NCBI GenBank assembly: GCA_051313645.2
Contig: JBNRSN020000007.1
Coordinates: forward strand, 234,980,001-235,044,000
Reading direction: 5' to 3'
Length of the DNA: 64,000 bases
Source: Centroscyllium fabricii
Lineage: Eukaryota
Shown: piece after piece, positions 12,845-44,842 of the stretch
Layout: every line of letters begins with the position of its first letter
Position numbering within the stretch: position 1 is the stretch's first letter
Position numbers and translations under genes: made by a program
The notes under the pieces: generated by a model
Seen by the model: the letters and a program-made list of their open reading frames with translations, nothing else
Database searches by the model: none
Told to the model about the DNA's origin: nothing

Positions 12845-13291
12845 GTCAGCTGTGGCTCAGTTGGTAGCACACTCGCCTTTGAGTCAGAAGGTTGTGGGTT
12901 CAAGTCCCGCTTCCGGGACTTGAGCACATAAAGCTAGGCTGACACTCCAGTGCAGTGCTGGGGGAGTGCTGCGCTGTTGGAGGTGCCGTCTTTCAGATGA
13001 GCCGTTAAACCGAGGCCCCGTCTGCTCTCTCAGGTGGACGTAAAAGATCCTATGGCACTATTTCGAAGAAGAGCAGGGGAGTTATCCCCAGTACCCTGGC
13101 CAATAGTTATCCCTCAACCAACATAAAAAACAGATTATCTGGTCATTATCACATTGCTGTGCGCAAATTGGCTGCCGCATTTCCAACATTACAACAGTGA
13201 CTCCACTTCGAAAGTAATTCATTGGCTGTAAAGTGCTTTGAGATGTCCAGTGGTCATGAAAGGTGCTATATAAATGCAAGTCTTTCTTTCT
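12845..13291 (+). mobile_element. tRNA-derived Deu-domain SINE (SacSINE1-like)
   Basis: A box TGGCTCAGTTGG, B box GGTTCAAGTCC, central GGAGGTGCCGTCTTTCAGATGAG...GTAAAAGATCC block, 3' tail AAAGGTGCTATATAAATGCAAGTCTTTCTTT; second copy at 19813. Confidence 0.8.
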
Positions 13292-36902: not shown

Positions 36903-37275
36903 TTTATTTATTTATTCATTCATGGGATGTGGGTGTTGCTGGCAAGGCCAGCATTTATTGCCAATTGCTAATTATCCTTGACAAGGTGGTGTTGAGCCTC
37001 TTTCTTGAACCGGTGCAGTTTGCGTGGTGAAGGTGCTCACACAGTGCTGTTGGGTAGGGAGTTCCAGGATTTTGACCCAGGGGCGATGAAGGAACGGTGA
37101 TCTATGTCCAAGCTAAGATGGTGTGTGACTTGGAGGGGAGCTTGGAGTTGGTGTTCCCATGCACCTGCTGCCCTTGCCCTTCTAGGTGGGGTAGACCACG
37201 GTTTTGGGAGGTGCTGTTGCAGAAGCCTTAGTGAGTTGCTGTAGTGCATCTTGTAGATATGCACATTATGCCATG
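36903..37275 (-). mobile_element. 3' fragment of the LINE family represented by 40661-43993
   Basis: Colinear with 40680-41050 (YKMHYSNSLRLLQQHLP...SKSWNSLPN and the same GGGATGTGGG 3' end). Confidence 0.85.
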
Positions 37276-40660: not shown

Positions 40661-40743
40661 TTTTTTTAATTTTATTTTTATTTTTATTCATTGATGGGAT
40701 GTGGGCGTCGCTGGCTGGCTAGGCCTGCATTTAGTGCCCATCC

Positions 40744-43524
40744 CTAATTGCCCTTGAGAAGATGGTGGTGAGCCACCTTCTTGAACCGCTGCAGTCCATA
40801 TGGTGTAGGTACACCTACAATGTTGTTAGGAAGGGAGTTCCAGGATTTTGGCCCAGCGACAGTGAAGGAGCGGCGATACAGGTCCAAGTCAGGATGGTGT
40901 GTGGCTTGGAGGGAAACTTGTAGGTGGTGCTGTTCCCATGCATCTGCTGCCCTTGTCCTTCTAAGTGGTAGAGGTCGTGGGTTTGGAAGGTGCTGTTGAA
41001 GGAGCTTTGGCGAGTTGCTGCAGTGCATCTTGCAGATGGTACACACTGCAGCCACAGTGCGCCGGTGGTGGAGGGAGTTAATGTTGAAGGTGGTGGCTGG
41101 AGTGCCAATCAAGCGGCCTGCTTTATCCTGAATGGTGTCGAGCTTCTTGAGGGTTGTTGGAGCTGCACTCATCCAGGCAAGTGGAGAGTATTCCATCACA
41201 CTCCTGACTTGTGCCTTGTAGATGGTGGAAAGGCTTTGGGGAGTCAGGAGGTGAGACACTCGCCGCAGAATTCCCAGCCTCTGGCCTGCTCTTGTAGCCA
41301 CAGTATTTATATGGCTGGTCCAGTTCAGTTTCCGATCAATGGTAACCCCCAGGATGTTGATAGTGGGGGATTCAGCGATGATAATGCCATTGAATGTCAA
41401 GGGGAGATGGTTAGAGTCTCGCTTGTTGGAGATGGTCATTGCCTGGCACTTGTGTGGTGCGAATGTTACTTGCCACTTGTCAGCCCAAGTCTGAATGTTG
41501 TCCAGGTCTTGCTGCATATGGACACGGACTGCGTCAGTATCTGCCGAGTCTCGAATGGTGCTGAACAGTGTGCAATCATCAGCGAACATCCCCACTTCTG
41601 ACTTTATGATGGAGGGAAGGTCATTGATGAAACAGCTGAAGATGGTTGTGCCTAGGACACTGCCCTGAGGAACTCCTGCAGTGATGTCCTGTGGTTGAGA
41701 TGAATGACCTCCAACAACCACAGCCAACTTCCTTTGTGCTAGGTATGATTCCAACCAATGGAGAGTTTTCCCCTTGATTCCCATTGACTTCAGCTTTGCC
41801 AGGGCTCCTTGATGCCACACTCGATCAAATGCTGCCTTGATGGCAAGGGCAGTCACTCTCACCTCACCTCTTGAGTTCAGCTCTTTTGCCCATGTTTGGA
41901 CCAAGGCTGTGATGAGGTCAGGAGCTGAGTGGCCCTGGCGGAACCCAAACTGGGCGTCAGTTAGCAGGTTATTGCTGAGTAAGTGCCGCTTGATAGCACT
42001 GTCGACGACACCTTCCATCACTTTGCTGATGATTGAGAGTAGACTGATGGGACGATAATTGGCCGGGTCGGATTTGTCCTGCTTTTTGTGGACAGGACAT
42101 ACTTGGGCAATTTTCCACATTGCTGGGTAGATGCCAGTGTTGTAGCTGTACTGGAACAGCTTGGCTAGGGGCGCAGCTAGTTCTGGAGCACAGGTCTTCA
42201 GTACTATTGCCGGAATGTTGTCAGGGCCCATAGCCTTTGCAGTATCCAGTGTCTTCAGCCGTTTCTTGACATCACGTGGAGTGAATTGAATGGGCTGAAG
42301 ACTGGCATCTGTGATGCTGGGGACCTCAGGAGGAGGCCGAGATGGATCATCCACTCGGCATTTCTGGCTGAAGATAGTTGCAAATGCTTCAGCCTTGTCT
42401 TTTGCACTCACGTGCTGGGCTCCACCATCGTTGAGGATGGGGATATTTTTGGAGCCTCCTCCTCCTGTTAACTGTTTAATAGTCCACCACCACTCACGAC
42501 TGGATGTGGCAGGACTGCAGAGCTTTGATTTGATCCGATGGTTGTGAGATCGCTTAGCTCTGTCTATCGCATGTTGCTTCTGTTGTTTGGCATGCAAGTA
42601 GTCCTGTGTTGTAGCCTCGCCAGGTTGACAACTCATTTTTCGGTATGCCTGGTGCTGTTCCCGGCATGCTCTCCTGCACTCTTCGTTAAACCAGGGTTGA
42701 TCTCCCGGCTTGATGGTAATGGTAGAGTGAGGGATATGCCGGGCCATGAGGTCACAGATTGTGGTTGAATACAATTCTGCTGCTGCTGATGGCCCACAGC
42801 GCCTCATGGATGCCCAGTTTTGAGTTGCCAGATCTGTTCGAAATCTGTCCCATTTAGCACGGTGGTAGTGCCACACAACACGGTGGAGGGTATCCTCAAC
42901 ATGAAGACGGGACTTCATCTCCACAAGGACTGTGCGGTGGTCACTTCCACCAATGCTGTCATGGACAGATGCATCTGCAACAGGTAGATTGGTGAGGACG
43001 AGATCAAGTAGGTTTTTCCCTCTTGTTGGTTCCCTCACCACCTGTCGCAGCCCCAGTCTGGCAGCTATGTCCTTTAGGACTCGGCCAGCTCGGTCAGTTG
43101 TGGTGCTATCGAGCCACTCTTGGTGATGGACATTGAAGTCCCCCACCCAGAGGACATTTTGTGCCCTTGCTACTCTCAGTGCTTCTTCCAATTGATGTTC
43201 AACATGGAGGAGTACTGATTCATCAGCTGAGGGAGGGCGGTAGGTGGTAATTAGTAGGAGGTTTCCTTGCCCATGTTTGACTTGATGCCATGAGACCTCA
43301 TGGGGTCCTGAGTCAATGTTGAGGACTCCCAGGGCTACTCCCTCCCGACTGTATACCACAGTGCCACCACCTCTGGTGGGTCTGTCCTGCCGGTGGGACA
43401 GGACATACCCAGGAATGGTGATGCTGGTGTCTGGGACATTGGCTGTGAGGTATGATTCTGTGAGTATGACTATGTCAGGCTGTTGCTTGACTAGTCTGTG
43501 GGACAGCTCTCCCAATTTTGGCAC
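40744..43524 (-). CDS. APE endonuclease-reverse transcriptase polyprotein (frame open from 43662; true start unknown)
   Basis: APE motifs NIWGL, LTES, YRPP, GDFN, LDL, SDH; RT motifs NYRPISLL, QFGFR, AFD, GVPQGS, FADD; no stop or frameshift in 972 sense codons; the track's start codon is GTG. Confidence 0.9.
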   Translation of the reverse strand: MPKLGELSHRLVKQQPDIVILTESYLTANVPDTSITIPGYVLSHRQDRPTRGGGTVVYSREGVALGVLNIDSGPHEVSWHQVKHGQGNLLLITTYRPPSADESVLLHVEHQLEEALRVARAQNVLWVGDFNVHHQEWLDSTTTDRAGRVLKDIAARLGLRQVVREPTRGKNLLDLVLTNLPVADASVHDSIGGSDHRTVLVEMKSRLHVEDTLHRVVWHYHRAKWDRFRTDLATQNWASMRRCGPSAAAELYSTTICDLMARHIPHSTITIKPGDQPWFNEECRRACREQHQAYRKMSCQPGEATTQDYLHAKQQKQHAIDRAKRSHNHRIKSKLCSPATSSREWWWTIKQLTGGGGSKNIPILNDGGAQHVSAKDKAEAFATIFSQKCRVDDPSRPPPEVPSITDASLQPIQFTPRDVKKRLKTLDTAKAMGPDNIPAIVLKTCAPELAAPLAKLFQYSYNTGIYPAMWKIAQVCPVHKKQDKSDPANYRPISLLSIISKVMEGVVDSAIKRHLLSNNLLTDAQFGFRQGHSAPDLITALVQTWAKELNSRGEVRVTALAIKAAFDRVWHQGALAKLKSMGIKGKTLHWLESYLAQRKLAVVVGGHSSQPQDITAGVPQGSVLGTTIFSCFINDLPSIIKSEVGMFADDCTLFSTIRDSADTDAVRVHMQQDLDNIQTWADKWQVTFAPHKCQAMTISNKRDSNHLPLTFNGIIIAESPTINILGVTIDRKLNWTSHINTVATRAGQRLGILRRVSHLLTPQSLSTIYKAQVRSVMEYSPLAWMSAAPTTLKKLDTIQDKAGRLIGTPATTFNINSLHHRRTVAAVCTICKMHCSNSPKLLQQHLPNPRPLPLRRTRAADAWEQHHLQVSLQATHHPDLDLYRRSFTVAGPKSWNSLPNNIVGVPTPYGLQRFKKVAHHHLLKGN

Positions 43525-43906
43525 AAGTCCCCAGATGTTTGTGAGGAGGACTTTGCAGGGTCGACAGGGCCAGGTTTGCCGTTGACGTTGTCGTTTCCGG
43601 TGCCGAGGTCGATGCCGGGTGGTCCATCCGGTTTTATTTTTATTGGTTTTCGTAGCGGTTGATTACAACTGAGTGGCTTGCTAGGCCATTTCAGAGGGCA
43701 TTAAGAGTCAACCACATTGCTGTGGGTCTGGAGTCACATGTAGGCCAGACCAGGTAAGGACGGCAGATTTCCTTCCCTAAAGGACATTAGTGAACCAGAT
43801 GGGTTTTGCAACAATCGACAATGGTATCATGGTCGCCATTACTAAGAATAACATTTAATTCCAGAATTAAATTGAATTGAATTTAAATTCCACCAGCTGC
43901 CGTGGT

Positions 43907-43982
43907 GGGATTTGAACCCATATCCTCAGAGCATTTGACTGAGCCTCTGGCTTACTAGTCTAGTGATATAACCACTACGCCA
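43907..43982 (-). promoter_or_regulatory. Type 2 RNA polymerase III internal promoter (A and B boxes)
   Basis: A box TGGCGTAGTGG at 43982-43972, starting 11 nt inside the element; B box GGTTCAAATCCC at 43918-43907. Confidence 0.8.
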
Positions 43983-43993
43983 CCGCCTCCCCC

Positions 43994-44842
43994 TGTGGAG
44001 AGATGAGAAAAACTGGGGGTTTCTCCTTGGAGCAGAGAAGGGTAAGAGGAAATGTAATCGAGGTGTTCCAAATCATGAAGGGTTTTGATAGAGTAAATAA
44101 AGAAAAAGGATTTAGAGTGGCAGAAGGGTTGGTAACCAGAGGAAACAGATTTAAGGTAAAGGGCGGCACGGTGGCATAGTGGTTAGCACTGTTGCCTTAC
44201 AGCACTAGAAACCCGGGTTCAAATCCAGCCTTGAGGTACTGTCTGTGTGGAGTTTGCACATTCTCCCCGTGTCTGCGTGGGTTTCCTCCGGGTGCTCCGG
44301 TTTCCTCCCACAGTCCAAAAGATGTGCAAGTTAGGTTGATTGGCCAGGATAAATTGACCCTTAGTGTTAGGGGGATTGAATATGTGGGGTTACGGGGATA
44401 GGGTGGGATATGTGTCGGTGCAGGCTCGCTAGGGATCGAGGGATATGGGGACAAGGCAGGGACAGGGTACTGGGTTTAGATGATCAGCCATGATCTCATT
44501 GAATGGCGGAGCAGGCTCGAAGGGCCGAATGGCCTACTCCTGCTCCTATCTTCTATGTTTCTATTTAATTGGCAAAAGAACCAGAGGTAAGATGAGGCGA
44601 ATTTTTTTGTGCAGCGAGTTGTTATGATCTGGAATACACTGCCTGAAAGGGTGGTGGAAGCAGATTCAATAATAACTTTCAAAAGGGAATTTGATATATA
44701 CTTGAAAAGCAAGAATTTGCAGGGCTATTGGGAAAGGGCAGGAGAATGGGACGAATTGGATAGCTTTTTTAAAGAGCTGGCACAGGTACGATGGGCCAAA
44801 GTGTGCTGTATCATTCTATGATTCTATCTATGATTCTATGAT
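43994..44842 (+). mobile_element. CR1 LINE 3' part (continuation of 39740-40660), interrupted by an HE1 SINE
   Basis: FSLEQRR, RRIFFVQRVVMIWNTLPERVVEA, (ATTCTATG)n tail. Confidence 0.85.
44161..44563 (+). mobile_element. HE1-type V-SINE
   Basis: Same head, V domain and tail as 20261-20663. Confidence 0.9.

Follow-up and report, generated by a model that had tools for sequence, protein, structure and literature searches.

An AGC-loop hairpin and an in-frame GCU as a candidate start of translation in the leader of an elasmobranch Zenon LINE

It has long been asked how synthesis of the proteins of long interspersed elements (LINEs) begins where no AUG can be used, and the question is raised by a LINE on the minus strand of a 64,000-nucleotide (nt) stretch of the Centroscyllium fabricii genome (assembly GCA_051313645.2, contig JBNRSN020000007.1, positions 234,980,001 to 235,044,000; hereafter the window). 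Its 972-codon frame, 43662-40744 from stop to stop, carries an APE endonuclease and a reverse transcriptase within one open reading frame (ORF) and follows a 330-nt leader that starts with a tRNA-like head at 43993 and contains only short ORFs. Comparison of genomic copies shows that the family has no AUG before the endonuclease, that the endonuclease is under selection, that the frame is conserved from a GCT codon onwards, and that this GCT is conserved together with the AGC loop of a hairpin just upstream. We hypothesise, with about even confidence, that the leader acts by codon-anticodon mimicry between the AGC loop and the in-frame GCU, in the manner of the internal ribosome entry sites in the intergenic regions of dicistroviruses (IGR IRESs).

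A frame conserved without AUG

The sequence-only reading of the window let the frame open after the TAA at 43665-43663, reading STATKTNKNKTGWTTRHRPRHRKRQRQRQTWPCRPCKVLLTNIWGLVPK, and placed an A-rich tract at 43650-43632; both sets of coordinates are right for the window copy. It further named 42918, 3' of the SDH motif (42945-42937), as the first in-frame ATG, and 43627 as an out-of-frame ATG opening an ORF of 50 codons. Both statements describe the window copy correctly but do not extend to the family: the ATG at 42918 occurs in 1 of 27 covering copies, and that at 43627 in none of the 28 copies of an unbiased set (30 fetched from the 7.2 Gb genome with a protein query not covering the junction of leader and frame, 2 duplicates dropped). 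The latter ATG was present in 6/29 copies picked by a query that carries it and in 5/19 loci picked by a foreign protein (read from the translations). Both ATGs are C-to-T changes at CpG, and Pfam found nothing in the 50-codon ORF. Since the first in-frame ATG shared by the copies lies only at 42807 (27/27), the absence of an AUG before the endonuclease is a property of the family, and not the loss of a start codon by the window copy alone.

Between the young copies and two older groups, synonymous and nonsynonymous changes in the endonuclease stand at 22:6 and 24:9, and in the subfamilies so compared the commonest codon after GCT is ACG. Purifying selection on a domain that lies 5' of the first family AUG argues that this domain was translated in the source lineages; the endonuclease is likely made without an AUG. 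Non-AUG initiation, which had been put forward as a possibility, is thus what the family sequence and the selection on the endonuclease together require, and we consider it very likely over the first three of the readings weighed below, which need or allow it.

The window motifs are present in seven elasmobranch consensus rows of the Zenon supplement (PMC13343379), the first 400 nt of each of which were compared by eye; the 9-nt motif also matched one unrelated Rex1 row. Judged by these sequences, the family is the elasmobranch Zenon (CR1-Zenon) of Stuart et al. 2026 (PMC13343379). The CTAGCAA loop is found in six of the seven rows and GCT followed by A in all seven, with a hairpin-to-GCT linker of 11 or 12 nt, which indicates that the frame is not kept upstream of GCT. 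In 4/7 rows (4/5 species) the GCT is in frame with the Arg-rich stretch, and the next codon is ACA, AAA or ACG, never ATG (PMC13343379). Counted by eye in 100 genome matches, the first of 1866, the codon after GCT is ACG in 73, ATG in 18, ACA in 6 and another in 3. What is conserved is therefore the GCT, not the ACG. The leader is retained in older subfamilies (74-87% identical), and part of one of them has TAC or TAT in place of the in-frame TAA. Length variants between GCT 43656 and the endonuclease depart from the modal length by a multiple of three in 35 of 48 cases, versus 12 of 72 in four leader segments; taken alone, these length changes are moderate evidence for frame conservation, because hexamer and AAT repeats ease triplet slips.

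The AGC-loop hairpin and its codon

The earlier suggestion that a leader block could supply initiation is borne out to the extent that the leader holds a candidate initiation structure, made up of a hairpin and the GCU. In the minimum free energy (MFE) fold the hairpin at 43694-43669 ends 12 nt before the GCT, and the AGC triplet of its loop is the anticodon of the in-frame GCU. Across 170 hairpins from fetched loci, loop positions 34, 35 and 36 (AGC) are kept in 168, 168 and 167, and position 33 varies (T102/C46/G18/A4). A variant hairpin, with a loop ending in GA and a stem with GAC, has 320 genome matches and is often joined to the young linker; its matches seem clustered on small contigs and contig ends, as gene conversion or a separate source lineage might produce.

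Two of 20 metagenome loci, L201 and L203, are close distant homologs that retain a leader, with about 40% protein identity. In both, AGC forms the centre of the 7-nt loop of an 11-12-pair hairpin whose stem differs in sequence, and GCT ACA follows in frame, as far from the endonuclease as in the window; the spacing from AGC to GCT is 26 nt in the window and 28 and 29 nt in these two. A further homolog, P0021, has Ala-Thr aligned at the same column and no Met before the endonuclease. A descriptor of a hairpin with a complementary codon, written after inspection of the three leaders, matched 3/3 of them (window, L201, L203) and 0/8 more distant LINE leaders; on shuffles it gave 34-49 matches per 1500, falling to 0-1 when AGC was required. 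The L201 leader has an extra structured segment of about 60 nt (L201:452-650) that L203 lacks.

Upstream lies a predicted domain-1 hairpin; measured from the start of its helix, the unit extends over about 146 nt as far as the GCT. On its inner side the helix (43799-43790 with 43737-43727) is bordered by loops UAAUG(U) and CCUACAU, and the interior pairing is ambiguous. The outer pair reads U-A in 11 of 23 sequences and A-U in 8, which separates the LINE from an old family of short interspersed elements (SINEs) and counts as one inherited change, and the inner UCAC/GUGA corresponds, by eye, to GCAC/GUGC in L201 and L203. The covariation analysis proposed for the leader gave a divided result: the whole-structure pair score exceeds shuffles (1/500), the sequences being related, but pairs with change on both sides do not (395/500). 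The fold of the whole leader has a z of -1.81, with 5 of 100 shuffles as stable, which is weak.

In the mechanism we favour, base pairs would form between the in-frame GCU and the AGC loop of the leader's last hairpin, like pseudoknot I of the dicistrovirus intergenic IRESs, and a ribosome bound in this way would begin decoding at the codon behind GCU, without cap, AUG or initiator tRNA. The first decoded codon would be ACG in the window copy, or alternatively GCU itself. A cap-independent leader of this kind, older than the tRNA head, would have allowed a coding element to live on a SINE-type promoter. A leader of 150 nt thus yields a prediction of three bases. More tentatively, and at somewhat less than even confidence, we extend the proposal to Zenon LINEs in general: they would carry a factor-independent, tRNA-mimicking IRES, of a sort hitherto reported from RNA viruses alone, which would predate the family's division into shark and invertebrate branches and would have let the shark lineage become a protein-coding element that RNA polymerase III (Pol III) transcribes and that gives rise to SINEs of its own through internal deletions.

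Several observations weigh against this mechanism. The predicted pseudoknot has only three loop-codon pairs, nearly invariant, and a compensatory change occurs in only one copy (L244, AAC with GTT), the other copy with an AAC loop keeping GCT. RNAalifold favours another fold that breaks the hairpin, and a search of Rfam, reaching to E 5, matched no IRES to the leaders of the window, L201 or L203. The L201 and L203 leaders are missed by a covariance model built on the shark leader (38 loci searched), with a best overlap at E 7.6, so that their homology rests on position and motif. P0027 shares the leader and lacks Ala-Thr, and in-frame ATGs are scattered among the distant homologs: three codons before the match in L201, about 20 before it in L203, and also in P0001 and P0020. 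The N-terminal extension shows 2 synonymous and 5 nonsynonymous changes, and through its six-base and AAT repeats triplet slips are favoured even where selection is absent; the Squalus consensus rows, three in number, do not have the GCT in frame (PMC13343379). To these may be added that an in-frame ATG stands right behind GCT in 18/100 copies, exceeding ACA (6; p 0.02), that the deficit of T4 runs (four consecutive T) in the ORF is modest against codon shuffles (0 vs mean 2.7, p 0.04), and that non-coding SINE forms also keep the hairpin, many with the GCT, so the hairpin may have a non-translational role.

A fourth pseudoknot pair, between loop position 33 and the base after GCT (+4), is hinted at by a few old SINE copies, shows no covariation and was rejected. 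We likewise made no use of pairing between AACCGCT in the leader (43660-43654) and AGCGGTT in the tail (40790-40784), which is real in the family but has no complement in the L201 tail (by eye). This complement covers the GCT, common short forms keep both halves or neither, and the pairing could be a switch between translation and copying.

The alternative that survives best, unlikely as we judge it, is a structure-dependent non-AUG start at or next to GCU without a codon-anticodon mimic, in which the hairpin would serve as a binding site for the ribosome, for a factor or for the protein of the element itself, with GCU decoded first. Such a start would suit four observations: type 6a-6d IRESs most often have GCU as their first codon (PMC12221177), conservation of the frame sets in at GCT, the loop-codon pairs show almost no covariation, and the SINE forms keep the hairpin. 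It leaves unaccounted for, however, that the invariant loop triplet is the exact anticodon of the invariant codon and occupies the anticodon positions of a 7-nt loop; nor do the shark, L201 and L203 leaders have in common any other loop complementary to the bases right before GCT.

Two further explanations, both decidedly improbable and equally so, draw mainly on the excess of ATG over ACA behind GCT. According to the first, Met-tRNAi would start at the near-cognate ACG 43653, reached by scanning or by 5'-end-dependent entry. The ACG is in frame in 73/100 copies and has a purine at -3, and the CpG of this codon yields ATG more often than ACA (18 vs 6), as if ATG were tolerated or favoured; yet C>T also exceeds G>A across all 41 CpGs (143 vs 109), ten ATGs lie upstream in the leader, and the codon is ACA or AAA in the published consensuses of 4/5 species (PMC13343379) and ACA in L201 and L203, neither of which is near-cognate. 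According to the second, Pol III RNAs would be untranslated templates, the protein being supplied in trans, either by the minority of copies in which a CpG change has created an ATG or by host read-through transcripts that are capped and spliced. Besides the ATG in 18/100 copies, this would suit the many non-coding derivatives mobilised in trans (18/30 sampled leaders belong to short forms) and the gene models P0005 and P0010, which fuse pieces of the element to host genes. Passengers would lose their ORF, however, and the ACG lineages show purifying selection, the 972-codon frame is kept in many copies, and the ACA and AAA lineages cannot reach ATG by one CpG step.

Frameshifting or reinitiation from an upstream AUG ORF is very improbable: the 43627 ORF, from which a frameshift had been envisaged, has no start in any of the 28 unbiased copies, ATG 43701 arises only by a 1-nt deletion in the young subfamily, and ATG 43689, although in frame and kept in 27/28 copies, sits in the hairpin stem, is followed by TAG (21/28) and TAA (28/28), and loses its frame in the whale-shark row with its 11-nt linker (PMC13343379).

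The tRNA head, the insertion and its short derivatives

If the leader initiates by codon-anticodon mimicry, a capped transcript would not be needed, and the head is of the kind that would supply an uncapped one. Of 62 alignments, a set that includes the window itself and two duplicated loci, 38 start at 43980-43999, the start of the tRNA; this clustering of 5' ends, with unrelated flanks, shows that the tRNA head belongs to the family. A and B boxes were located by their consensuses, ARAGORN called no true tRNA at the head, and the coding strand has 0 T4 runs and 16 A4 runs. The sequence features of a type 2 Pol III unit are thus all present (A and B boxes, a 5' end at the tRNA start and no T4 terminators), which makes Pol III transcription of the LINE, and with it an uncapped RNA, plausible. 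Leader and junction are also present in four contig sets guessed to be RNA, from four organisms, in which neither start nor strand is shown. In L201, a distant homolog, hairpin and GCT are present, but the ORF contains 7 T4 runs and no tRNA was called, a combination suggesting that the signal formed by hairpin and GCU predates the tRNA head.

The LINE is young: its copies are 96-99% identical and have unrelated flanks. When both flanks were joined in silico, 8 of 19 matches at other loci, to a CR1-like repeat, aligned across the junction, so that the element from head to tail is one insertion (Table 1), with an A-rich, poly-A-type end at 40688-40661. The window copy is likely inactive, because the Asp of reverse transcriptase motif A, present in 37/37 other copies, is replaced by Ala (ALAIK, 41853-41818).

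Table 1. Features of the Zenon-type LINE, in window coordinates; residues are those of the 972-codon frame
Feature	Positions	Strand	Remark
Whole tRNA-headed, single-ORF Zenon-type LINE	40661..43993	-	One insertion inside an older CR1-like repeat
tRNA-like head	43903..43993	-	A box 43982-43972, B box 43918-43908; 3' limit approximate
Predicted domain-1 hairpin	43727..43799	-	Helix 43799-43790 with 43737-43727; MFE fold of 43803-43722
Hairpin with 7-nt anticodon-like loop CUAGCAA (43684-43678)	43669..43694	-	AGC at loop positions 3-5; MFE fold
In-frame TAA	43663..43665	-	Within the 12-nt linker from hairpin to GCT; 28/28 young copies
In-frame GCT	43654..43656	-	Predicted codon partner of the AGC loop; start of frame conservation
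ACG, predicted first decoded codon	43651..43653	-	ACA or AAA in four published shark/ray consensuses
Basic N-terminal extension	43555..43650	-	A-rich codons, then Arg-x repeat 43617-43579; length varies, frame kept
APE endonuclease domain	42937..43554	-	Pfam PF03372/PF14529 (Exo_endo_phos, residues 42-242); entirely 5' of first family AUG (42807)
Reverse transcriptase domain	41340..42081	-	Pfam PF00078 (RVT_1), residues 528-775
3' tail and A-rich end	40661..40756	-	Common to short non-coding derivatives
50-codon out-of-frame ORF	43475..43627	-	Copy-level CpG decay product, no family feature

The last 17 bases of the leader occur 28,512 times in the genome. The first 30 of them along the genome comprise 11 that run on into the ORF, 18 that pass straight to the tail, at four different breakpoints, and 1 unclear case; a fifth leader-tail junction occurs 133 times (control 0). 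Sharing head, body and tail with the LINE, these short forms are internal deletions of it. At least five such SINE-like deletions are young and abundant (L061-L110), among them 43993-43667 joined to 40757-40661 and junctions 43652/40825 and 43640/40796, and in the 30-locus sample the short forms outnumber the coding one. The body recurs, 75-87% identical, in an older family (L225-L248).

A Deu-domain label for the leader was tried and rejected: the three Deu core motifs given in the supplement of PMC7245038 are unmatched in it at one mismatch, and ten Deu-core-like loci of this genome gave no alignment to its body. A Deu-core-like match at about 13000-13050 (+) in the window is distinct from the LINE leader. 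Elsewhere in the window, 36903-37258 is an older 3' fragment from the same LINE family as the element described here, 79% identical, and just upstream of the LINE, inside the same older CR1-like repeat, lies an insertion (44560-44160 read on the minus strand) which we take to be V-SINE-like (HE1-like). P0005 and P0010, gene models named from Heterodontus, are probably annotation artefacts or exonisation of the endonuclease pieces that they fuse to host genes. A search of the genome for a second Zenon family returned the same family. Among 130 aligned distant proteins, the 57 with at least 50 residues before the catalytic Asn have no common Ala-Thr position. Viral contigs gave no relative by protein and 16 matches of a 16-mer, about the level of chance, prokaryote genome contigs gave three distant matches with no useful leaders, and matching by sequence found no solved structure.

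Relation to known systems

R2 elements resemble this LINE in having a single ORF, an uncapped RNA, often no AUG, and a structured 5' region; they differ in being Pol I co-transcripts freed by a ribozyme, with a restriction-like endonuclease and no tRNA head. Closest is the published elasmobranch Zenon itself, which agrees in its length of about 3.3 kb, the lack of ORF1, the combination of APE and reverse transcriptase and the poly-A tail, and to whose consensus rows leader and junction are close; its main text makes no mention of tRNA, start codon, polymerase III or Deu, and leaves head and initiation undiscussed (PMC13343379). Bipartite non-autonomous LINEs and SINE bodies derived from LINE 5' untranslated regions (Kojima 2018, PMC5786205) are likewise short elements made of LINE 5' and 3' ends. 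In that study, however, only RTE, Ingi, Vingi and R2 yield them and the tRNA head is added later, whereas here the coding LINE bears the head. The DeuSINEs SacSINE1, LmeSINE1 and AmnSINE1 (PMC5499810, PMC4824008, PMC7245038) share a tRNA-type head, a conserved body, a LINE-type tail and the same kind of genome; the window leader differs from them in lacking the Deu core motifs.

Within the literature that could be searched, most subscription papers lying outside its reach, there was no report of a tRNA-mimic IRES in a LINE apart from a hypothetical remark in a 2013 review, according to which ORF2 would have to be rethought if non-LTR elements contained IGR IRESs, and which gives no example (PMC3894237). 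If our model is correct, the Zenon leader would be a case in a cellular genome of factorless initiation. It would account for the ability of a Pol III promoter to serve an element that encodes a protein and would give the conserved SINE-like body a function, and it might offer a vertebrate-adapted cap-independent element for expression from uncapped or circular RNA.

Type 6 IRESs offer the natural comparison for this mechanism. They too have a non-AUG frame immediately behind a hairpin that can pair with the mRNA through its loop (PMC12221177, PMC10516663, PMC10275262), the window unit of about 146 nt falls within their 126-205 nt (PMC10516663), and the upstream hairpin has an internal loop resembling L1.1a. 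The latter is published as U[G/A]A[U/C]C (PMC10275262), and UAAUG/UGAUG/UGAUC in our leaders are similar to it, with four of five letters for L1.1a; the likeness to L1.1b is partial and competing folds exist. ACA, the codon behind GCT in L201 and L203, is the commonest predicted start in type 6f IRESs (PMC12221177). The window structure differs in lying in a retrotransposon 5' leader and not in a viral intergenic region, and in having only three loop-codon pairs. Two differences bear on the mechanism itself and count against it: decoding starts with GCU in most type 6 IRESs (PMC12221177, PMC10516663) but GCU is the paired codon in our model, and neither pseudoknots II and III (PKII, PKIII) nor stem-loops IV and V (SLIV, SLV) could be established in the leader, with no consistent PKIII candidate in the folds; PKIII with SLIV/SLV is a feature of types 6a and 6b and is absent in 6c. 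Because the structure lies in a LINE 5' leader and not between two viral ORFs, we do not file it as a member of this class; if the model is right, the Zenon leader would work like a type 6 IRES.

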